Virus record (IMG/VR): IMGVR_UViG_3300045988_151163
Span: 10,857 to 74,856 of that record
Length of the DNA stretch: 64,000 bases
From: a virus
Direction: 5' to 3' (one strand)
Made by a program: the position numbers and the translations under genes. The notes under the pieces are model-generated. The model searched no databases, had not been told where the DNA came from, and saw only the letters and a list, made by a program, of their open reading frames with translations. Below are positions 10,264 to 55,038 of this stretch, piece after piece; within the stretch, counting starts at the first letter, position 1; each line of letters starts with the position of its first letter.

Positions 10264-13200
10264 TTATGATATTGTAGCACTAACAACTTTAGTATATGTA
10301 TGTTTATGTCCTTCTGTTTCTCCTGTATAAACCGTGTTAGTCTTGAAATCAATAGTTTTACTTTTTAGAACAGTATTAACAACACTTTCTATATAGTTTT
10401 TTAAGGACGTACTCGAACCAATCATAATATTTTCTCCAGAAGCATTAAATATAGCCTTAGGAGAAGAAAGATATAATTCTGTTCCACCAGATAATCTTAA
10501 TTTTGAAGAACCACTCAAAGAAGTTTCTGATGCATTTATAGATAAACCAAAACTACCAACTCTTAAAGAACCACTTGTATTAGTTATTTCCATTTTATTA
10601 CTACCACTAGAAGCAGTTACTCTAGTAGTACCTTTCATAGAAATATCTCCACCGGTACCTTTAATACCAGATTCACCATCTGTTAAAATATTAAAATCAC
10701 CACTTGTGTCAAATTTAATATTTCCGCCACCACTTGCAGTATCATAAATACTGCTTGTAGTAATAGTCCATCCGCCTATCTGACCAGATGTCATCTGTCC
10801 ACCTGACCAATTTGCTTCTCCCGAACCAGTTTTAAAATGAACGCCACCGATAATCGCATCATTACAAGTAAGAACTCCGGCTGTACTAAAACTCCATCCA
10901 GAACCAATAATTGATCCATTACTATTAAGTGTAACACTTCCTCCTTTAAGAGTTGAATTACTAATTGTCCATCCACCAATAGTACCTCTTGTAGACCATA
11001 GTTCACCTAAATTATTTACCCTAAAAGGAGATGGATTCGGTCCCAATGAAATACCTGTTGTACCTAAGTAGAAACATCCCGATGTAGAATCTAATAATTT
11101 TGAGCTATTCCAACCAGAAGTATTATATGAGATATATCCTCCACTAGTCATAGGATGAATATCAAAAATTTTAATATCTCCTGATTTAACATAAATTGAA
11201 TCCTTATCAATAGTCCAATTTGCTATATGACCTTTAGTAGCTAAAAGTTCACCAGTTCTATCTACCCAAAAAGAATCTCCAAGAGAAAGTCCTTCATTTC
11301 CTAAATAAAAACCTTTTCCAGTTTTATTAAAATCTTCTTTAATAAAAGCAATATAACCTTTTTTACTATCTAATACTAATCCTGGTTTGGTTACACCATC
11401 TATAACAACTGTATTTGTTGACAATAGTTGATACTCATCAAGAGTCCAATTAGCAATATGTCCTGCAGTAGCCCATAAAATACCATTACTTTCAACTTCA
11501 AAAACTCCACGATTATTCTTTTTAGAACTTTCTTTACCTAATCTAATTCCTTGTGTTCCAACATACAAACTATTGTTTTTAAAATCATGTATACCATCTG
11601 TATTATATCTTAAAGAAGCATTTGAAATATCTTTTTTATCAACCTCTAAAACTAAAAAGTGATCTGAAGTTGTTGCATTCTTTTTAAAACTACCAATCTT
11701 CAAAGAACCTTCTGCGCTAAGCTCCAAATTATGACCAAAAGAAAGACCATCCGTACCAATATAAACACTAGAGCTATTATTTTCAGATTGATCAGTTGAT
11801 TGATTAACAAAAGACTTACTAATTAAATAAGAAGCTCCATGTCCAATAAAACTAGTACCTTTAAGATTTTGCCCTATTATCCAATGCGCACCACTTAAAT
11901 TTCCTACTTCAAGGATACCTGTTCCTTGCGTTCTTAATCCTGTTGAAGGTTGTATGCTTACTTTAAATGTATTACCAATACTAAAACCATCTGAACCAAG
12001 ATAGAATCCAGGTTGCATGCTATCTAAAGTATCATGTGGTTTTCTAGTATTATCACTAGAATAAATTTTGGGACTGCGGTTTTCAGGTCCATTAGCGTCC
12101 GTCAAGCCGACTGAGTTACCGCTATCAAGCACGAGCTGCGCGTTATTTTTTATTACACTAGATAAGGTATTTTCGCCAATTTCCCATCCGCCAATAACTC
12201 CAGATGTAAATGTACTTTTACCTTCAGAGTTAACATTCCAATAACTACTCTTTATAGCACCATCGGTTAAGTTAATAAGCATACCCTGTCCGCTTGAATA
12301 ATTATCTCTTTCTTCTTGAGTTTTTAGATTATTAAAATCTATTTCACTAATAAAGCTACCATCTTTTTTGCTATAATAACCTTTTCTTTTTGAATCATAT
12401 TTATAATAATTTCCAGAATATATTGAAGCAAAAGCCTGATTTGGACTAATTACAATCTGACCTTGTCCTGGCATACCCATAAACGCGGAACCTGTTTTAG
12501 CATCTAAAAAGATAGATTGAATACCTTGTGAATATCCAAATAAACCAATATCTTTATTTCTTAAATTAAGGTCATTTTCAGTTTCAGAAACCATGCTTCT
12601 GTTAACTGAAGTTCTAGCACCCATAAACATTCCTGTAAAAGTATTATTGTTCGTCTTTACACCAGCACCAATCTGAGGACAGAACATATATTCGCCATTA
12701 TTAGATAAATAATATTTTTTACCATCCCAGTTGTTTAGACCAGGAATTTCATATGAATTACATTTCATATTTATTGGTCTAATAATGATAACTGATTCTT
12801 GACTAGATTCAATACCTATATTTAAGTCAGCTATTTCTTTATTTTTATTCTTAATATCTGTATTTAATTCTGATGTTTTTGTACTATATTTTTCTTGTAA
12901 ATATTGTAATGGAACTAAATAACTATTTTCATAAGTTTTTAATAAATCAGTATTATATTTCTCAGTTATACTATTTATACTTTTTATCTTTGTATTTTTA
13001 ACATCATCAGCTAAGGTCTTTAATATATTATCTTTCTCTAAAGTTTTTTCTCTTGTTAATATAGCATAATGTTGTCTTATAACAGCAATTTCTTTACCTT
13101 TTTCTTCATCAGTAAAATCTTTATTTGCTTTAATTTTAGCTATTTCTTTACTACAATTATCATTTTCATTTGCTGTTAACTCCTCATATCTTTTTTGAAC

Positions 13201-41338: not shown

Positions 41339-42424
41339 TTACTTTTTGTTTCTACAAGATTTACAAATAGAATACCATCCATCTCTACTTGTCTTATTCT
41401 TTGCAAAAAAGTAGCTGTGACCTAATTTAATTTGACCGCATCTTGAACATCTTTTCCAATATCCTTTTTCTTCTTCGGTATAGTGCCAAATGAGCCAATC
41501 CATTTTAGCTTGTTCAGATAACATTTTAGGGATTTTATTTCGCCAAAGGGAAGAAATATATTCAACAGAATGTTTAATTTCAAATTCTTCGTATAATAGA
41601 TCTTGAATTTCTGCGTTTTGTTTACCATCTATTTTATATATTACTAATTTATAATATAAAGGGAATTTTTCTTTAAAAGTTCTTTCTACTAAATCATCTA
41701 AATCAACCATCATCCATCTTAAATCACTTCCAAAATTTTCATATGTTTCCTCTTTTATTTTTGAGTAATTGCATAACAAGAGAGAAACATGAAAAGGATT
41801 GATTAAAGTAATTAGACCATCGCTATAAATCTCACCTGTATCTGGGTCAATCTGGATTTTTTCCTGTAAATTTACCCGGGATATTGATTTAACTAAATTT
41901 GTGCTATACATTGGTCTGCGATAGACCTCTTTTAAAACATATTGGTCTTTTCTCATTTCAATGAGTTGTTTTTTTAAGAGATACGCGCGCTTGCCAGTAG
42001 CTGTACTAGCCTGCTTCTCTATTCGCTCTATACTCTCGCGAAGTTCTCTCAAACCGGGCACTTCCGCAATATCTTGCTCAGTAATTTCATATTTAGGTCT
42101 ATAAATAATATTCTTATCATTAGCAATCATATTATAGATGCCATCTTCGCCATTTTCAAGTTTTCCAATAAGTCCTTCAAAAGATGTCTCTCTATCATTA
42201 ACTGTTTTCATTCTGTTATCTGTTAATAATGAACTTTTTTCACCTTGTTTATTTTGCTTTCTATCTTCTTTATTTGCTGCTAATATTATATAATCTGCTA
42301 ATTTTTCTAGATATGTTGAGTTCAATCTTTCAGGAGGAGTATTGGCTATTATTTTTTTGACATGCTCTGTTCGCTCTTGTGATGATTCAAGCGAAAAGTC
42401 CATTTTTATGTAATTTTGTTCCAT
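41339..42424 (-). CDS. hypothetical protein with C-terminal Zn ribbon (first gene of leftward operon)
   Basis: CSRCGQ...CKSCRNKK; AGAAAGGAG SD; driven by promoter 42453..42481. Confidence 0.3.
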   Translation of the reverse strand: MEQNYIKMDFSLESSQERTEHVKKIIANTPPERLNSTYLEKLADYIILAANKEDRKQNKQGEKSSLLTDNRMKTVNDRETSFEGLIGKLENGEDGIYNMIANDKNIIYRPKYEITEQDIAEVPGLRELRESIERIEKQASTATGKRAYLLKKQLIEMRKDQYVLKEVYRRPMYSTNLVKSISRVNLQEKIQIDPDTGEIYSDGLITLINPFHVSLLLCNYSKIKEETYENFGSDLRWMMVDLDDLVERTFKEKFPLYYKLVIYKIDGKQNAEIQDLLYEEFEIKHSVEYISSLWRNKIPKMLSEQAKMDWLIWHYTEEEKGYWKRCSRCGQIKLGHSYFFAKNKTSRDGWYSICKSCRNKK

Positions 42425-43250: not shown

Positions 43251-44129
43251 ATGCCAGCACATGATGATTTAGGAACTAGAATGAAAACTTTCTATGAAAA
43301 CGCATCTAAAACTTACCTTATGCACAGATGTCCTGTTGCCATTAGGCTAGATGGCCGCGCTTTCCATACTTTTACAAAAGGATTTCAGAAACCTTTTGAT
43401 GAAATATTGATGAAGTCAATGCAAAAAACTATGCAGTATCTTTGTAAGAATATCCAAGGATGCGTTTTTGGATATACTCAGTCAGATGAGATTACTCTTA
43501 TATTAGTAGATTATAAAAATTTAACCAGCACTGCGTGGTTTGATTATGACGTACAGAAAGTATGTAGTATTGCTGCAAGTATGGCTACGATGATATTTAA
43601 CAAGTATTTTTATGATAATGTATTTATGTACAATGCGACTGCTGCTGTTGATTTATCCAATAAAAAATATCCATTTAAAGAAGTATATTCTAAAGCAGTA
43701 AATAAAGGTGCAATGTTTGACGCAAGATGCTTTAATATACCAAAAGAAGAAGTAGCTAATTTAATTTATTGGCGGCAGTTGGATGCTATACGGAATTCAG
43801 TCCAGGCAACCGGACAAGCAAACTTTAGCCATAAAGAGCTACAAGGCAAATCTTGCGCAGACATAAAAGAAATGCTTAAAGAAAAAGGCGTTGATTGGAA
43901 TAGTCTTCCTTTAGAGTTTCAAAGAGGCTCTTGTTGTGTAAGAAATGCTGTTGCCATAAAAAAAGAACAAGTTATTTTCCCTAGTGGGAAAAAGATGATT
44001 AGATCTATTATAGAACTTAGAGATACATCCAAGCCAGAAAAAGCTTGGATTATAGATAAAGAAATCCCTATATTTAAAGGAAAAGATAGAAAGTATATTG
44101 AAGATTTAATTTTTATTGAGGAGGAATAA
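43251..44129 (+). CDS. Thg1-like protein (tRNA-His guanylyltransferase family 3'-5' nucleotidyltransferase)
   Basis: VAIRLDGRAFHTFTKGFQKPFDE and GYTQSDEITLIL match Thg1 catalytic palm motifs (compare human VVVRLDGRNFHRF...AKPND and AYGQSDEYSFVF); WRQLD matches the Thg1 WRQ.D. Confidence 0.8.
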   Translation: MPAHDDLGTRMKTFYENASKTYLMHRCPVAIRLDGRAFHTFTKGFQKPFDEILMKSMQKTMQYLCKNIQGCVFGYTQSDEITLILVDYKNLTSTAWFDYDVQKVCSIAASMATMIFNKYFYDNVFMYNATAAVDLSNKKYPFKEVYSKAVNKGAMFDARCFNIPKEEVANLIYWRQLDAIRNSVQATGQANFSHKELQGKSCADIKEMLKEKGVDWNSLPLEFQRGSCCVRNAVAIKKEQVIFPSGKKMIRSIIELRDTSKPEKAWIIDKEIPIFKGKDRKYIEDLIFIEEE

Positions 44130-44382: not shown

Positions 44383-44671
44383 TAATTTTGGATCAGTTAA
44401 AAACAAATACCGAAAAAGCCTATAAAAACTGACTCATATAGAGGAATAATAAACAAGATTTATGCTTATGCTTGTCCTACATGTGGAAAAATGGATGAAT
44501 GAACGTCAGGAAACAATGTATTGTTGGAATTGCGGTCAAAGATTACAATGGTGAGATTCCGTCTTTTGAAATCAAAATAACTTTTGGAGAGGGAATTGTC
44601 GAGGAAAGTTAGGCTAGACTAACTCGCCAAATTTGACCCCGAAATATGCCCGCCCATGATACCTCAGATTC

Positions 44672-44700
44672 ATTATACCATACTATGTGTAGTTTGTCAA
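44672..44700 (-). promoter_or_regulatory. isolated minus-strand consensus promoter (antisense to upstream region)
   Basis: rc TTGACA-17-TGGTATAAT; no minus ORF downstream. Confidence 0.45.
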
Positions 44701-44825
44701 GCACTAATTTTTACATAATCATTGGTTAGGCGGGGCAAACACTTTAGTGCGTTAAAGCATTGAAGCGCGCAAGAAAATGATAAAAAGAAGTAAAGAAAAT
44801 GATAAAAATTTTTTTACAAAAACAC

Positions 44826-44854
44826 TTGACAAATGAATCAAAAAGGCTTATAAT
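44826..44854 (+). promoter_or_regulatory. early promoter TTGACA-17-TATAAT (gene 44905)
   Basis: exact consensus hexamers, 17-nt spacer. Confidence 0.6.
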
Positions 44855-44904
44855 GTGTACATAAGGTAAAGGAAAGGAAGCCAAAAGGCTAAAGGTAAAA
44901 AGTT

Positions 44905-45141
44905 ATGGAGTTCAGAATGTATCAGAATATTGAGGGCGTTGAATTTGAGGTTATGGGTGACAAGGTTCTCTTTCACACAGAGGACGAGGCACAGGTCACA
45001 GGACTTGAGTATTTCGCAGAAAAGCACAATGTGTCGATCGAAGTCCGTGAGGATGGCTGGACAGAGGTTTTTGGTGATACAACTTCACTTTTCTACTTCG
45101 TTTGCGGTTTGGGTAGAATGACAATCAATAACAACTTGTAG
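44905..45141 (+). CDS. hypothetical protein (78 aa), higher-GC early gene
   Basis: own promoter 44826..44854; conserved leader shared with 45700 gene. Confidence 0.55.
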   Translation: MEFRMYQNIEGVEFEVMGDKVLFHTEDEAQVTGLEYFAEKHNVSIEVREDGWTEVFGDTTSLFYFVCGLGRMTINNNL

Positions 45142-45264
45142 AAGTAAAAACAAGGCAAGGGCGCAAGCTCTTGCCTTTAATAGTGCTTAACGCTTTAGTG
45201 CGTTAAAGTGTTAAAGCACTAAAGTATTGTATTTAAAAGAGTACAATTTATTTATAAAAAAAGC

Positions 45265-45293
45265 TTGACAATCAATAACAAAAGGCTTATAAT
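45265..45293 (+). promoter_or_regulatory. early promoter (gene 45327)
   Basis: TTGACA-17-TATAAT. Confidence 0.6.
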
Positions 45294-45326
45294 AAAGATA
45301 AAGATAAAGGAAAGAGGTAAACAACT

Positions 45327-45611
45327 ATGAATAATAAGAGAAAGTCAGCATTGAGAATAAACGTAGAAACGGCATTGATTACATTGTCTATTTTTGTTGG
45401 TGTGCTGCTTGTTAGCTTTGTAATGTGCATTGTAGGCTTTAAGGTGTTCAGAGCGCATGACGACATTGATTTGGAGTTGACACCAACAGCACAGCTCGAA
45501 AATACTATTGATGTAGAAGCATTAGGCAAAAGACCAACAGAAGCAAGCGAACTTGTAAGACCTGTTGATGATAGCACAATGGAGTACATTAACAAAAGTT
45601 TAGAAAAATAG
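45327..45611 (+). CDS. small membrane protein (94 aa, one TM)
   Basis: promoter 45265..45293, SD GGAAAGAGGT. Confidence 0.55.
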   Translation: MNNKRKSALRINVETALITLSIFVGVLLVSFVMCIVGFKVFRAHDDIDLELTPTAQLENTIDVEALGKRPTEASELVRPVDDSTMEYINKSLEK

Positions 45612-45621
45612 AAAAAAGTGC

Positions 45622-45650
45622 TTGACAAACAAAGCACAATCTGTTATACT
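45622..45650 (+). promoter_or_regulatory. early promoter (gene 45700), -35 inside hairpin GTGCTT/AAGCAC
   Basis: TTGACA-17-TATACT. Confidence 0.55.
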
Positions 45651-45699
45651 TAGTATAAAGATAAGGAAAGGAAAGCCAAAGGCTTAAAGGTAAATAACT

Positions 45700-45891
45700 A
45701 TGAATAAGACAACACTTGCATACTTCACAATCGAGGATAACTATTTTGTATTCACAAGAACAAACTATTTTGATGATAACACAAAGTCGATCGAGAGAGC
45801 AAAGGCTGAAAAGGAACTTGCAAGACTTCAGGCAATCAACAAGGACAGACATCTGAAGATTGTTACACGTTACGATTGCATCACAATGTAG
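45700..45891 (+). CDS. hypothetical protein (63 aa)
   Basis: promoter 45622..45650; terminator 45893..45918. Confidence 0.55.
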   Translation: MNKTTLAYFTIEDNYFVFTRTNYFDDNTKSIERAKAEKELARLQAINKDRHLKIVTRYDCITM

Positions 45892-45956
45892 GAAGAAGGC
45901 AAAAGCCTTCTTTTTTTGTTCGTTCTGAATCGAACAAATGGTCTGGTGTCCGAACT

Positions 45957-45986
45957 ATTATAGCACACTACTAGCCAACTTGTCAA
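45957..45986 (-). promoter_or_regulatory. isolated minus-strand consensus promoter (faces terminator of gene 45700)
   Basis: rc TTGACA-18-TGCTATAAT. Confidence 0.45.
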
Positions 45987-46084
45987 GAGGAAAAATGTAA
46001 AAAAATAAAAAAATATCTTTCCTAAAACAGGTAAAGGATTTAATAAAAAACGCAAGCAAATTGTATCAATCTATTGAATAAAGT

Positions 46085-46098
46085 AGTATTATAATACT
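46085..46098. repeat. perfect palindromic 14-mer AGTATTATAATACT with conserved about 80-bp flanks; copy A (others at 46727..46740 and 50836..50849)
   Basis: three copies sharing AAAAACGCAAG..TTGTATCAATC..AAAGTAGTATTATAATACTTGTAAGGAA. Confidence 0.6.
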
Positions 46099-46131
46099 TG
46101 TAAGGAACACAAGGAAAGGAAACAAGAGAAC

Positions 46132-46233
46132 ATGAGTTTGATTGAAAGAATTGAGGAAGCTATCGAGAACAAAGACACAAACGCACTTGAATTACTGCTT
46201 GTAGATTGGGATAACAATAGATTGACAAATTAG
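46132..46233 (+). CDS. hypothetical 33-aa peptide
   Basis: ATG after AAGGAAAGGAAACAAGAG; downstream of palindromic 14-mer element. Confidence 0.3.
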   Translation: MSLIERIEEAIENKDTNALELLLVDWDNNRLTN

Positions 46234-46246
46234 AAAGAGGTTAAAA

Positions 46247-46486
46247 ATGAAAGAATTTTTCAGTATCACAGAAAAGAAGTATGTTTTTGAGGTTGCGGAC
46301 TTGACTACAATTATAACAATTTTAAATGTCTTGTTTGTGGTGTGCGGTTTCGCGTGGGCACCTTGGCTTGGCATTGTGAATTGCAGTGTTTGGCTTGTGT
46401 TGAATGTAAAAGCAAAAGCGCATGTGAATAGTTATGTGACACAGATTGCACTCATTATATTAAATGCGTATTTCTTGACATTGTAG
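46247..46486 (+). CDS. small membrane protein (79 aa)
   Basis: SD GAAAGAGGT; terminator 46485..46514. Confidence 0.5.
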   Translation: MKEFFSITEKKYVFEVADLTTIITILNVLFVVCGFAWAPWLGIVNCSVWLVLNVKAKAHVNSYVTQIALIILNAYFLTL

Positions 46487-46607
46487 AGAAGATATAAAAA
46501 TCTTCTCTTTTTTAATGGGCATAATACTTTAGCGCGTTAAAGCGTTACAGTTCACTGCACTAAAGCGACTTCCGCAACCATCGAACACCTGGTCTGCTGC
46601 CCGAAAA

Positions 46608-46637
46608 ATTATACCACAGGTGACCGCACTTTGTCAA
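46608..46637 (-). promoter_or_regulatory. isolated minus-strand consensus promoter; followed on plus side by TTGCACAA..TTGTGCAA terminator 46646..46693
   Basis: rc TTGACA-18-TGGTATAAT. Confidence 0.45.
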
Positions 46638-46794
46638 GAGAAAATTTGCACAAATTTACAAGTTTTTTCAATCCCGAAATTGTGCAATTTTTTTATAAAA
46701 AACTATTGACTTTTGTTACCTAAAGTAGTATTATAATACTTGTAAGGAACAGAAACAACACGATAGCTGAAAACAGAAACTTACAAAAAAGGTG

Positions 46795-46823
46795 TTGACA
46801 AACTCAATAAGATGTGCTATAAT
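46795..46823 (+). promoter_or_regulatory. early promoter (gene 46857)
   Basis: TTGACA-17-TATAAT. Confidence 0.6.
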
Positions 46824-46856
46824 AAGTACAGAAATTAAGGAAAGAGGTAGTTGAGT

Positions 46857-46985
46857 ATGAAAGTTGTTAAAATTGAGAAGCATGGTTGCAATTATATTGT
46901 TGGTTTCGAGGGTGGCGCGGTTCGTCACTTCTGCGGCAGTGAGATTGAGTTCCAGGCTTGGCTTGAGAAGAAAACAAAAAAGTAG
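46857..46985 (+). CDS. hypothetical 42-aa protein (paralog of 47062 gene)
   Basis: promoter 46795..46823, SD GGAAAGAGGT; MKVVKIEKHGC... resembles MKMVVVKLGG... Confidence 0.45.
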   Translation: MKVVKIEKHGCNYIVGFEGGAVRHFCGSEIEFQAWLEKKTKK

Positions 46986-46995
46986 TAAAAAGGGG

Positions 46996-47024
46996 TTGAC
47001 AAACCCCACAAGGTATGGTATAAT
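46996..47024 (+). promoter_or_regulatory. early promoter (gene 47062), -35 inside GGGGTT/AACCCC hairpin
   Basis: TTGACA-17-TGGTATAAT. Confidence 0.6.
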
Positions 47025-47061
47025 AAATACATAATAAAGAAAAGGAAAGAGGTAAAAAATT

Positions 47062-47175
47062 ATGAAGATGGTTGTTGTTAAACTTGGCGGAGTTGTTGTT
47101 GACAAGGATTGCTACTCACTTGCGAAGATTCGTGAGATTGAGAAAGCTGGATTCACGGTTGAGAGTGTCAAGTAG
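47062..47175 (+). CDS. hypothetical 37-aa protein
   Basis: promoter 46996..47024, SD GGAAAGAGGT. Confidence 0.45.
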   Translation: MKMVVVKLGGVVVDKDCYSLAKIREIEKAGFTVESVK

Positions 47176-47838: not shown

Positions 47839-47907
47839 AGGGATAGTAGGCTAAATGGCAAACCGCTAATGCGCATAGAAACAAGAGTTCGATTCTCTTC
47901 TATCTCA
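47839..47907 (+). ncRNA. tRNA-like fragment (acceptor GGGATAG/CTATCTC + T arm AAGAG-TTCGATT-CTCTT, degenerate D/anticodon arms)
   Basis: canonical T-loop and 7-bp acceptor pairing but no foldable anticodon arm. Confidence 0.3.
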
Positions 47908-47979: not shown

Positions 47980-48229
47980 ATGAAGAAAATCTATGTAGTT
48001 AAAGAAAAAGAACTGCTATGGGGTAAAAGAAAAAGCATATTTTACAAGCAAAGATAAATGTATCGGCTTTATTCTTGGAAAAATAGAGGATTGTAAAAAA
48101 GCTTGTGATATAAAATCTGATAAATGGGATTATGAAAACAAACACTTAAATAAAAAAGATTTGTTTAATTGGATGTTTTTTGATACGCACAATAATTATT
48201 TTATAGTATCAACTATTACAGTTTATTAA
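47980..48229 (+). pseudogene. frameshifted small Cys-containing gene (MKKIYVVKEKEL...; reading frame broken in an A-tract, continues +1 to 48229)
   Basis: SD GGAAAGAGGT; 25-aa ORF stops at 48057 while a +1 frame stays open about 75 codons from about 47999 with no start of its own. Confidence 0.35.
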
Positions 48230-48879: not shown

Positions 48880-48957
48880 TTGACATATCGCGGCAGTTGT
48901 GATATAATGGAATTTTGAGATGAAAATACCCTAGAAAAAATTTTTCATTTTTCTCTT
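48880..48957 (+). ncRNA. promoter (TTGACA-17-TATAAT) followed after about 10 nt by hairpin+T-run terminator: predicted about 45-nt non-coding transcript
   Basis: no ORF; TGAAAAT/ATTTTCA stem + TTTTTCTC. Confidence 0.4.
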
Positions 48958-49048
48958 GACAAATTAAATGAAATATGATATACTGGGCGGCCCGCGCACC
49001 ATCGCAGCGGGCCGAAATATTATACCACACATGACTCAGGTTTGTCAA
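48956..49048. repeat. convergent-promoter unit U2: plus promoter 48956..48984, GC hairpin 48985..49014, minus-strand promoter 49019..49048
   Basis: TTGACA-17-TATACT; GGGCGGCCCGCG..CGCAGCGGGCCG; rc TTGACA-18-TGGTATAAT. Confidence 0.6.
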
Positions 49049-49066: not shown

Positions 49067-49113
49067 TTATCCACAATTTACTATCCCGAAATTGTGGATA
49101 ACTTTGTGGATAA
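49067..49113. promoter_or_regulatory. three consensus DnaA boxes (TTATCCACA at 49067..49075; TGTGGATAA at 49094..49102 and 49105..49113), two forming a hairpin with TCCCGAA loop
   Basis: exact match to TTATNCACA consensus, 3 copies in 47 bp. Confidence 0.5.
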
Positions 49114-49182: not shown

Positions 49183-49326
49183 ATGATGGTATTTGAAGTT
49201 ATGGGGTACACGATAGTTGGATATGGGTATCGCTGGACAGTCACCCGCAATGGTGTACACGTTGGTACATATTCTGATACATGGGTAAATATCAGAAATG
49301 CAATTATTTTGAAAAAAATCAAATAA
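49183..49326 (+). CDS. hypothetical 47-aa protein
   Basis: promoter 49120..49148. Confidence 0.4.
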   Translation: MMVFEVMGYTIVGYGYRWTVTRNGVHVGTYSDTWVNIRNAIILKKIK

Positions 49327-49330
49327 GGGG

Positions 49331-49359
49331 TTGACAAATACCCCTAAACATGGTATAAT
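49331..49359 (+). promoter_or_regulatory. early promoter (gene 49394)
   Basis: TTGACA-17-TGGTATAAT. Confidence 0.6.
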
Positions 49360-50632: not shown

Positions 50633-50724
50633 TTGACAAAGTTCCTTTGATATGATATAATGGCGGCGCGCTTGCGGTTGGGGCGCGCCGCAATATTATA
50701 CCACATGTACCCGCAGTTTGTCAA
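50633..50724. repeat. convergent-promoter unit U3: plus promoter 50633..50661, GC hairpin 50662..50691, minus promoter 50695..50724; terminator 50743..50779
   Basis: TTGACA-17-TATAAT; GGCGGCGCGC..GCGCGCCGC; rc TTGACA-18-TGGTATAAT. Confidence 0.6.
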
Positions 50725-50911
50725 GACTAATTTTTGAAAAAATTGCACAAAAATTTTTCTCCCGAATTGTGCAATTTTTACGAAAAGAATCTGATAAAAA
50801 ACGCAAGAATTTTGTATCAATCCATGCTTAAAAGTAGTATTATAATACTTGTAAGGAAGAGATAACAACATGATAGTTGAAAACAAACTTCCTAAAGAAA
50901 ATAAAAAAATG

Positions 50912-50940
50912 CTTGACAAAGCAAACTAAATGTGCTATAA
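50912..50940 (+). promoter_or_regulatory. promoter followed by about 95 nt non-coding leader, then promoter 51041..51069 for the exonuclease gene
   Basis: TTGACA-17-TATAAT twice in tandem. Confidence 0.5.
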
Positions 50941-51101
50941 TAAATACATACAAGGGAGCTGATAAAGCTTGAAACAAAACCCTGTCGAGTGCGTAAGGAA
51001 GTCAAGGTACAGTAAAGGTTGAAAAAATTTGAAAAAGGTCTTGACAAACTCCCTTGAATATGTTATACTTAGTACATAAGGTAAAGGAAAGAGGTAAAAA
51101 A

Positions 51102-52783: not shown

Positions 52784-52921
52784 GGGGATGTAGCTCAGTG
52801 GTAGAGCGGTGGCTCGTTAAGCCACGTCACATTGATGATACCCCTCTAAAAGCACTTTTGACTTAATCAACCAAGGGTGGGCGTTAGAGACGGGGCGAGA
52901 GTTCGATTCTCTCCATTCCCA
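52784..52921 (+). tRNA. aberrant tRNA-like gene: canonical acceptor, D, anticodon (loop UCGUUAA, GUU=Asn, C at position 33) and T arms, but a 71-nt insertion at the variable-loop position (52826..52896)
   Basis: GGGGATG/CATTCCC acceptor pairing, D arm GCTCAGTGGTAGAGC, anticodon stem GTGGC/GCCAC, T arm GAGAG-TTCGATT-CTCTC; driven by promoter 52742..52770. Confidence 0.45.
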
Positions 52922-52930
52922 ATTAAAAAT

Positions 52931-53002
52931 AGGCGTGTGGCTCAATGGAAAAGCAACGGTCTCCAAAACCGCGATTTACAGGTTCAAATCCTGTCGCGCC
53001 TG
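52931..53002 (+). tRNA. tRNA-Trp (CCA)
   Basis: acceptor AGGCGTG/CGCGCCT, anticodon arm CGGT-CTCCAAA-ACCG, T arm ACAGG-TTCAAAT-CCTGT; GGTCTCCAAAACC is typical of tRNA-Trp. Confidence 0.75.
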
Positions 53003-53036
53003 CTAATACAGTAAAAGATTGTTACCTCCTTTCCTT

Positions 53037-53075: not shown

Positions 53076-53170
53076 TTGACAAAAATTGATTTTTGTGTTA
53101 TAATGGGCGGCGCGCCATAGGTCGCGGCGCGCCGAACTTCCAGTATACCATAATCCCGGCTTTTTGTCAA
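53076..53170. repeat. convergent-promoter unit U4: plus promoter 53076..53104, GC hairpin 53105..53134, minus promoter 53142..53170
   Basis: TTGACA-17-TATAAT; GGGCGGCGCGCC..GCGGCGCGCCG; rc TTGACA-17-TATACT. Confidence 0.6.
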
Positions 53171-53695: not shown

Positions 53696-53757
53696 TTGAC
53701 AAATAATATTAAACATGATATAATAAAGAAAAGATAAGGAAAGAGGTAAAAAATATG
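53696..53757 (+). repeat. about 60-bp promoter+leader+RBS block, near-identical direct repeat of 53912..53975
   Basis: TTGACAAATAATATTAAACATGATATAATAAAGAAAAGATAAGGAAAGAGGTAAAAAA in both. Confidence 0.6.
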
Positions 53758-53911: not shown

Positions 53912-53975
53912 TTGACAAATAATATTAAACATGATATAATAAAGAAAAGATAAGGAAAGAGGTAAAAAAGATATG
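53912..53975 (+). repeat. second copy of the promoter+leader block (drives the HAD phosphatase gene)
   Basis: see 53696..53757. Confidence 0.6.
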
Positions 53976-54946: not shown

Positions 54947-55038
54947 TTGACAAACAATAGAAAGTATGCTATAATGGCGCGGCGTGCACGCTCCTCGCAC
55001 GCCGAGATATTATACCACATAGCTCTGGCATTTGTCAA
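54947..55038. repeat. convergent-promoter unit U5: plus promoter 54947..54975, GC hairpin 54976..55006, minus promoter 55009..55038; terminator 55047..55093
   Basis: TTGACA-17-TATAAT; GGCGCGGCGTGC..GCACGCCGAG; rc TTGACA-18-TGGTATAAT. Confidence 0.6.

Follow-up and report, generated by a model that had tools for sequence, protein, structure and literature searches.

Antisense and convergent promoters, promoter/stem-loop cassettes and small RNAs of early regions are already known kinds of elements. The early, 'host-takeover' regions of large phages consist mostly of small unknown genes whose regulation is poorly understood, especially in uncultivated gut phages. In such a region of a virus from IMG/VR (record IMGVR_UViG_3300045988_151163, positions 10,857 to 74,856; these 64,000 nucleotides are called the window below) we describe a non-coding cassette whose consensus promoter points backwards, against the flanking early genes, and which we tentatively read as an insulator of early transcription units. 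Three of these backward promoters, M1, M2 and M3 (sites 1, 2 and 3), are the main subject. What is new is the conserved architecture of the cassette, for which there was no match in Rfam, in cultured phages or in the literature.

The PeSL (promoter-early stem-loop) cassettes have been described in T4-type phages (PMC2839356, PMC4122927). Like the cassette considered here, a PeSL is a short composite unit in which a stem-loop is combined with a strong early promoter of host type; many copies stand among small early open reading frames (ORFs) of unknown function, and in both cases the insertions, deletions and replacements seen between close relatives are bounded by cassettes. The PeSL promoters, however, run with the genes, whereas sites 1-3 and most members of their family run against the flanking genes. 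Also, a PeSL carries its terminator upstream of the promoter, while the cassette here has inverted boxes upstream and a GC hairpin at the transcript start. The phage group (here, phages of gut Clostridia) and the sequences differ as well.

In coliphage 186, the promoters pR and pL form one face-to-face pair, tens of base pairs (bp) apart, that works with a repressor as the lysis-lysogeny switch. The mechanisms of transcriptional interference between face-to-face promoters have been treated elsewhere (PMC6593788). Common to 186 and the present locus are convergent promoters whose polymerases would meet, and strong promoters that face opposite transcription. The differences are that many copies occur here in an early array of lytic type, that the -10 elements of a full unit are close enough (33-37 bp) to imply mutually exclusive occupancy, and that the lone copies face a terminator instead of a promoter. 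Stem-loops at the 5' terminus, such as the ermC and aprE leaders, are RNA stabilisers in Firmicutes and protect from 5'-dependent decay. The hairpin of the cassette similarly lies a few nucleotides (nt) from the predicted 5' end; the ermC and aprE stem-loops, however, lead mRNAs, while the transcript here has no ORF, and the hairpin here is a perfect palindrome with partly conserved loops that is missing at sites 2 and 3. For Staphylococcus Kayvirus phage K, finally, small non-coding and antisense RNAs were detected in the early region of the terminal repeats (PMC9241854). The likeness is in the setting: these RNAs are short, minus-strand or antisense, and lie in a large Firmicutes phage where small early genes are densely promoted; the architecture of consensus promoter and GC hairpin was not reported there, and no sequence relation was shown.

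A search of Rfam 15 over 44.3-57.3 kb, at the gathering score and with E-values up to 5, produced no match overlapping the sites, and only three tRNAs reached the threshold. ARAGORN found no tRNA or tmRNA at the sites. Among cultured phages, BLAST of positions 44400-47100 returned only Staphylococcus epidermidis phages, at 71-73% over ~180 nt of AT-rich promoter sequence, and the core of the 55.0-kb unit (M7, below) had no match. In the literature on convergent or face-to-face promoters in phage early regions we found only the 186-type switch, the PeSLs and the Kayvirus non-coding RNAs; the cassette is undescribed there.

Three backward promoters in the early-gene array

The plus-strand array at 44.8-56.8 kb is made of very small genes; most have a consensus promoter of their own in front, and many have an intrinsic terminator behind them. 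It holds about 33 plus-strand TTGACA-17-TATAAT sites (one mismatch allowed), and on these sequence features it would be a typical early region transcribed by the host polymerase. An earlier note, made from the sequence alone, had pointed out three consensus promoters on the opposite strand. All three were confirmed (TTGACA-N17/18-TATAAT, 12/12 with TGn, at 44700-44672, 45986-45957 and 46637-46608). Their spacers of 17, 18 and 18 nt agree with sigma-A/sigma-70 spacing, and the extended -10 motif TGn, typical of Firmicutes, stands ahead of TATAAT in each (TGG, TGC and TGG), with all 36 hexamer positions and all three TG motifs intact in the window. Perfect matches to the consensus numbered 39 in the window compared to 0.12 expected from 100 dinucleotide shuffles.

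The absence of a plus-strand partner, also noted earlier, was borne out: the best matches leftward of sites 1-3 reached 9/12, 8/12 and 7/12, compared to 11-12/12 in the full units described below. Likewise, no minus-strand ORF with a ribosome-binding site was found behind the sites. The only sizeable one, 45852-45589 (87 amino acids, aa), lacks a Shine-Dalgarno sequence and runs antisense to a plus gene with good signals, and minus-strand protein genes were rejected as an explanation, none of them having a ribosome-binding site. Other details proved less uniform than had been claimed. The -10 sequence TGGTATAAT was found at sites 1 and 3, while site 2 has TGCTATAAT; TTGTCAAGAG is present on the plus side of sites 2 and 3, while site 1 reads TTGTCAAGCA; and the inverted repeat TTGCACAA...TTGTGCAA, said to follow two of the three sites, follows site 3 alone (46646/46680). 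The palindrome AGTATTATAATACT does occur at two of the three, at 46085 and 46727. The features around the three sites are the following.

44672..44700, minus strand: backward promoter M1, TTGACA-17-TGGTATAAT; predicted start ~44665; aims at the 3' end of the Thg1-like gene block
45890..45915, plus strand: intrinsic terminator of the plus gene at 45700-45891, with its T-run (45911-45917) at a distance of 33-39 nt from the predicted M2 start
45916..45937, no strand assigned: 7-bp AT-rich hairpin TTGTTCG/CGAACAA between the terminator and M2, standing where the GC hairpin would be
45930..45956, minus strand: M2 leader ATCGAACA..TGGTCTG.TG.CCGAA, paralogous to 46581-46607
45957..45986, minus strand: backward promoter M2, TTGACA-18-TGCTATAAT; predicted start ~45950
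46045..46098, plus strand: right half of the M2 cassette, AAAAAACGCAAG..TTGTATCAATC and palindrome AGTATTATAATACT (46085-46098); -10-like element into gene 46132
46485..46508, plus strand: intrinsic terminator of the plus gene at 46247-46486; M3 faces it over a distance of ~90 nt
46524..46607, minus strand: M3 leader, conserved in both phage A and phage B (below), with motif CTTTAGCGCGTTAAAG at 46527-46542 and a segment like that of M2 at 46581-46607
46608..46637, minus strand: backward promoter M3, TTGACA-18-TGGTATAAT; predicted start ~46601
46646..46694, no strand assigned: M3 upstream element E, with TTGCACAA (46646), TCCCGAA (46672), TTGTGCAA (46680) and a T-run, in the box/TTTCGGGAT/box order of the family
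46727..46740, plus strand: palindrome AGTATTATAATACT of the M3 cassette, with TTGACT 17 nt upstream of the palindrome's TATTAT

M1 is the leftmost copy of the cassette, bordering the Thg1-like gene block and the early region; it has no terminator directly upstream and only a degenerate box. M2 has the standard geometry of a lone unit, with the upstream terminator coming first, and its proximal box is degenerate. In the M3 cassette the promoter, the boxes and the TCCCGAA motif are all standard, and the leader is ~90 nt long with no GC hairpin. Examination of the leaders of sites 1-3 gave no evidence of a conserved structured RNA, and the fold of the M1 leader was not significant (z = -0.5). For M3, a structured RNA was considered and rejected: the predicted fold scored z = -4.2, but its closing stem GGGCA/UGCCC is lost in phage B. 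We also observed a motif, CTTTAG[CT]GCGTTAAAG, three times in the left early region (44742-44757, 45193-45208 and 46527-46542). Its copies have inverted partners (GCACTAAAG) nearby, and similar motifs adjoin hairpin units in the unrelated contigs L220, L297 and L295.

Two close relatives, both IMG/VR contigs, were available for comparison: phage A (~93% identity) and phage B (82-92%). Neither of them has lost any of the three backward promoters, the hexamers being unchanged and the changes confined to the spacers. M1 is 100% identical in phage A and has one spacer change in phage B; M2 is 100% identical in phage A and has two spacer changes in phage B; M3 has one spacer change in phage A and none in phage B. 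The backward promoters are 97-100% identical to phage A, while one flanking gene is only 85% identical. In the comparison with phage A, intergenic identity was 95.2% compared to 93.4% for coding sequence (p = 0.04); the non-coding cassettes are no less conserved than the genes. In phage B, a different gene and terminator stand upstream of M3, yet the whole 330-nt cassette is kept at ~97%.

The earlier note had described the sites as partly decayed. This holds for sites 2 and 3 in so far as they lack the plus partner and the GC hairpin, but not for the promoters, which are all 12/12, nor for the cassettes, which are conserved in the relatives. We consider it improbable that sites 1-3 are non-functional remnants of facing units, conserved only through recent divergence of the relatives. 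The missing partner and hairpin would agree with such remnants, as would the degenerate boxes beside M2 and M1, the mere 7-18% divergence of the available relatives and the restriction of the M2/M3 leader to the lineage of the window phage. Remnants, on the other hand, sit badly with the intact hexamers and TG motifs in the window and the unchanged hexamers in both relatives next to coding sequence that has diverged by up to 15%, with the higher identity of intergenic sequence, and with the commonness of lone backward promoters in unrelated phages. Judged from sequence, sites 1-3 are intact, selected promoters of sigma-A type and members of a conserved non-coding cassette family.

Paralogous units and the wider cassette family

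The segments 45893-46130, 46485-46860 and 50690-50900 had been proposed as homologous, and the alignments agree: local scores were 74, 93 and 138, compared to 21 +/- 3 for dinucleotide shuffles (z = 19, 24 and 42, respectively). The right half of the M2 cassette matches 50783-50858 at 65 of 76 positions (~86%). As for the proposed duplicated composite element, sites 1-3 are indeed paralogous to four units in the same array, at 48956-49048, 50633-50724, 53076-53170 and 54947-55038. In each of these a minus-strand consensus promoter (at 49048, 50724, 53170 and 55038) stands opposite a plus-strand consensus promoter, with a ~30-nt perfect GC-rich hairpin between them. A further unit contains a promoter and a hairpin of the same type.

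48956..49048, no strand assigned: full unit M4, with plus promoter, GC hairpin (48985-49018) and backward promoter
50633..50724, no strand assigned: full unit M5, with plus promoter, GC hairpin (50662-50694) and backward promoter, then element E and the palindrome
53076..53170, no strand assigned: full unit M6, with hairpin loop GCGACCTAT in the backward orientation, one mismatch from the family loop GCGACCCAT
54947..55038, no strand assigned: full unit M7, with a compensatory T-A to A-T change of the hairpin stem in phage A
56342..56399, plus strand: unit M8, with promoter and GC hairpin of the same type, then AGTTCCCACGACCAGACC resembling the M2/M3 leaders

The -10 elements of the full units M4-M7 are 33-37 bp apart. 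Since the footprint of a promoter-bound polymerase extends to ~+20, both promoters of a full unit could not be occupied simultaneously. To the right of the backward promoter come the inverted boxes TTGCACAA ... TCCCGAA(A) TTGTGCAA. Three of the eight cassettes, namely M2, M3 and M5, also have a segment that closes with the palindrome AGTATTATAATACT and leads on to the gene that follows. After the palindrome, two cassettes (46741-46785 and 50850-50890) share a ~45-nt leader, GTAAGGAAnAGAnAACAACAyGATAGyTGAAAAC, in which the ATG of one copy is ACG in the other.

The leader ATCGAACA..TGGTCTG.TG.CCGAA common to sites 2 and 3 occurs only in the window phage and in phages A and B, and it can be aligned with the loop and the 3' arm of the M4 hairpin at 49.0 kb. 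Sites 2 and 3 are therefore best seen as a lineage-specific duplication of a derivative. By sequence, this derivative would have lost the plus partner and the GC hairpin with its 5' arm, and retained the promoter and the upstream elements.

The gene 45327-45611 is missing from phage B (45315-45612), and both endpoints lie within promoter cassettes that are repeated. Further breaks of similarity with phages A and B that were checked (near 47990/48225, 53270/53700 and 54470/54930) were at or near promoter cassettes as well. In our analysis these breakpoints look like modular shuffling of the PeSL type. One could go further and take the cassettes for DNA-level, PeSL-like recombination cassettes that shuffle the small early genes, the backward promoters being by-products of inverted insertions. 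The breakpoints speak for this possibility, and so does the M3 cassette standing beside a different upstream gene in phage B. So, too, does the similarity of M3 to cassettes of unrelated contigs, which reaches 75-80% over 100-200 nt and exceeds its match to the paralogue at 50.7 kb (75.6% over 205 nt for contig L221, compared to 70% over 201 nt for M5). Recombination homology, however, does not need a 12/12 promoter, a consistent backward orientation, a fixed hairpin spacing or conserved upstream boxes, and PeSL promoters are co-directional with the genes they flank; we regard this explanation as rather unlikely. An invertible promoter was rejected, as there are no flanking inverted repeats around the promoter.

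In M4, the place of the inverted TTGCACAA/TTGTGCAA boxes is taken (49067-49113) by three perfect matches to the DnaA box TTATCCACA; the one at 49067 is on the plus strand, and those at 49093 and 49105 are on the minus strand. Phages A and B both retain the three. These boxes, and the resemblance of TGTGCAA(A/T) to the relaxed DnaA-box consensus (our own comparison), would suit elements of replication or priming, namely transcription-activated origins with DnaA-like boxes. At least eight copies within 12 kb make origins implausible, though, and the DnaA boxes belong to one unit only, in this lineage only. There is no DnaA-box cluster near sites 1-3, TTATCCACA boxes being close together only at 49067-49113, and no AT-rich unwinding element or initiator gene is tied to the cassettes. 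A variant would have antiterminator-dependent promoters firing leftward into the minus-strand late genes. All the backward promoters do aim at the late-gene block (1-42.4 kb), but such transcripts would have to cross 2-14 kb of strong opposing transcription. We consider both versions very improbable.

Outside this lineage, the cassette was traced by the box-promoter pattern TTTGTGCA-NN-TT-NN-CT-N-TTGACAAA (20 specified bases). It was found in more than 118 IMG/VR stretches, mostly contigs of 80-200 kb, and in 69 contigs of metagenome-assembled genomes, whose taxa were mostly Oscillospiraceae, Acutalibacteraceae, Ruminococcus, Lachnospiraceae and other Clostridia of gut or rumen. A scan for ATTATACCACA-N-TTTGTCAA returned mostly ordinary gene promoters and was kept as a background set. 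The cassette is thus present in more than 100 unrelated large phage contigs, mostly of gut or rumen Clostridia, and the members of the family, as read from these sequences, appear to be set against the direction of the early-gene arrays in large gut Clostridia phages.

Read in the direction of the backward promoter, the family consensus begins with a divergent gene promoter, followed by TTGCACAAA, TTTCGGGAT and TTTGTGCAA. The boxes TTGCACAAA and TTTGTGCAA are inverted with respect to each other, with their starts a median of 33 nt apart. After the boxes come 8 nt, TTGACAAA, N and TGnTATAAT, and most members have a GG discriminator. The leader after the -10 consists of 7-8 AT-rich nt, often GGAAATTT, then a perfect GC hairpin, (C)GCC and an A-rich sequence. 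Perfectly paired GC hairpins with 7 bp or more, starting no further than 14 nt from the -10, were found in 74 of 124 box-promoters, compared to 1.5 in shuffles. Stems are 7-10 bp long and loops mostly 9 or 11 nt; where a unit adjoins a convergent terminator, its hairpin ends 33-35 nt past the -10.

Stems differ in nearly every copy, and some loops recur. The loop GCGACCCAT, within one mismatch, was found on eight unrelated stems in six distinct phage contigs; identity of the stems was 0.60 in pairs with near-identical loops compared to 0.49 in pairs with dissimilar loops. Mismatch-free stems made up 95 of 104, and G.U pairs were almost absent, which suggests that pairing matters on both strands or in DNA. 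The use of mismatch types as a test of RNA- versus DNA-level selection was dropped, as stem mismatches were too few. The M7 stem changed from CGGCGTGC/GCACGCCG in the window to CGGCGAGC/GCTCGCCG in phage A. Three candidate roles were set aside. The GC hairpin as an intrinsic terminator was rejected, since the hairpin is followed by CGCC/AAAA one way and by AAATTTCC the other way, with no U-run. A mimic of CRISPR repeats was rejected with the stems different in every copy and no match to CRISPR direct repeats at the hairpins. Element E as a universal terminator of the plus direction was rejected as well, having the required T-run in only 34 of 105 cases.

The hairpins raise the possibility that the cassettes are genes for small trans-acting RNAs, decoys or regulators recognised by their loops, with sites 1-3 defective or diverged; the backward orientation would then merely place the hairpin at the exact 5' end of its own transcript. 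Such genes would fit a hairpin that begins at the predicted transcript start and ends at a set distance past the -10, stems that are hypervariable yet paired, loops mostly of two lengths, the recurrence of GCGACCCAT on unrelated stems, the compensatory change in M7 between close relatives and the presence of at least eight copies per genome. On the other side, a T-run in the direction of the promoter itself was seen in only 11 of the 103 hairpin units that lack a facing promoter, and therefore no defined 3' end is evident. The near-absence of G.U is unusual for a purely RNA-level constraint, there is no match to an Rfam family, and the stems, differing between copies, are unlike those of a CRISPR-repeat mimic. 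Moreover, sites 2 and 3 are conserved without the GC hairpin and the M1 leader is unstructured. On balance we think small-RNA genes unlikely.

A proposed role in head-on transcription at the upstream terminator

The reading that we favour, short of calling it probable, is that the cassette insulates transcription units and produces antisense RNA at 3' ends through head-on RNA polymerase at the upstream terminator. The cassette lies between two co-directional early genes, its promoter aiming at the upstream gene, usually right past the terminator of that gene. Polymerase binding would be very stable, given the consensus -35, TG and -10, mostly a GG discriminator, and GC-rich initially transcribed DNA. 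A polymerase sitting at or leaving the backward promoter would meet the polymerases of the upstream gene head-on at the terminator, and such meetings would enforce termination and insulate the next transcription unit. Polymerases that escape would make RNA antisense to the upstream terminator and 3' end, and in the canonical form this RNA would have the perfect GC hairpin at its 5' end, a likely stabiliser. A regulator that would tune the promoter probably binds the inverted boxes TTGCACAAA..TTTCGGGAT..TTTGTGCAA, which lie close to the -35 on its upstream side. Promoter activity itself, like interference, antisense RNA and regulator binding, is something we infer from the architecture of the cassettes.

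Orientation statistics across the family bear on this reading. Gene orientation was taken from purine skew, and ORF-based orientation was set aside because the genes are tiny. Among 48 lone hairpin promoters, 28 opposed the flanking genes on either side and 3 ran with them; for hairpin promoters of facing pairs the counts were 14 and 2 of 19. Among the 103 hairpin units without a facing promoter, 53 had the terminator of a convergent gene as the next hairpin, at a median of 17 nt further on. Most of these terminators (45) had an A-run before and no T-run after, and the remaining 8 had both. The distance from the -10 to the convergent terminator was bimodal, with one mode at 40-55 nt, where the two are directly adjacent, and another at 65-90 nt, where the two are separated by a facing promoter, intact or decayed. 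A lone backward promoter abutting the upstream terminator is therefore a normal state of the family; it is probably commoner than the facing pair, which would be a frequent variant.

The geometry at M2 is tight. The leading edge of a polymerase lies ~18-20 nt ahead of its active site. With the T-run of the upstream terminator only 33-39 nt from the M2 start, and given this distance and the extent of the promoter-bound footprint, a head-on encounter would stall the incoming polymerase on the U-tract. The terminators opposite M2 and M3 carry no T-run for the minus direction, the convergent terminator coming directly. For both, the promoter lies on the opposite strand downstream of its target with no terminator before the overlap, the arrangement of a cis-antisense RNA, so that antisense RNA over the upstream 3' ends would fit the geometry of these two sites.

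Several points weigh against head-on insulation. M3 is ~90 nt from its terminator and M1 has none, and therefore only M2 among the three has the tight geometry. The orientation and terminator statistics come from loci selected by a pattern and rely on crude proxies, namely purine skew and simple hairpin rules. A roadblock does not explain the perfect Watson-Crick palindromy, the 9/11-nt loops or the loops GCGACCCAT on unrelated stems; palindromy and recurrent loops point to a hairpin that is specifically recognised, as RNA or as DNA. As these features fit a recognised hairpin better, such a hairpin is kept as the main rival. The inverted boxes, too, could form a hairpin instead of binding a regulator, and in M4 they are replaced by DnaA boxes.

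It is possible, and we say so with reserve, that the cassette represents a new class of regulatory element, either a programmable roadblock or insulator in which facing pairs would be mutually exclusive switches, or a source of 5'-hairpin RNA. In the latter version abundant 5'-hairpin RNAs may be read by a phage or host protein, for example as decoys against a defence system. With its strong promoter aimed back at the upstream terminator, the conserved non-coding architecture seen in more than 100 phage contigs has a testable logic. If head-on insulation is true, it would be a route to strictly monocistronic and individually tunable early genes, and would provide compact synthetic-biology parts for Firmicutes; if the hairpin RNA is the product, the cassettes would define a new family of abundant phage RNAs. 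Either way, the cassette is a signature for early regions, and probably for Clostridia hosts, in metagenomic phage contigs.

Gene content and minor observations

The window has a G+C content of 32%. Its left 42 kb carry structural genes on the minus strand, among them genes for the large terminase, the portal and a capsid-like protein and ORFs of 2384 and 2886 aa; the late-gene block spans 1-42.4 kb. The capsid-like protein is 47% identical to that of the gut phage phAss-1, and 38% identical to those of Enterococcus phages of the EF1/H1 type. Clostridia are the predicted hosts of phAss-1 (PMC10607447).

Immediately left of the early region is a Thg1-like gene (tRNA-His guanylyltransferase family) at 43251-44129, for which 256 relatives were confirmed in IMG/VR phage contigs. 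In a comparison of its neighbourhoods in 80 phages, the early region was common only to the two closest relatives. The segment 44136-44555 is absent from phage B. A zinc-ribbon gene at 44462-44612 is apparently split by a frameshift, with CPTCG in one frame and CWNCG in the overlapping ORF 44462-44554. Further left, a sigma-factor-like protein (phrog_5767) is encoded at 41339-42424; its C-terminal segment matches zinc-finger/HNH-type families, and its gene is driven by its own minus-strand consensus promoter at 42481-42453.

Rfam placed a tRNA at 52784-52921, with the anticodon loop UCGUUAA (GUU) and a 67-nt insertion in the variable region, and a further one at 47840-47907; ARAGORN reported a tRNA-Trp alone, at 52931-53003. 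In the array itself, the terminator hairpins of some plus genes (46992-47007, 49326-49345 and 45618-45637) hold the -35 hexamer of the next promoter in the loop or stem, and therefore the array is built of very compact, overlapping terminator-promoter cassettes. The 360 nt at 50725-51083 carry three promoters and no ORF longer than ~19 aa. Two promoters 216 bp apart, at 53696-53724 and 53912-53940, share an identical 40-nt sequence, which indicates that a promoter cassette was recently duplicated in tandem.

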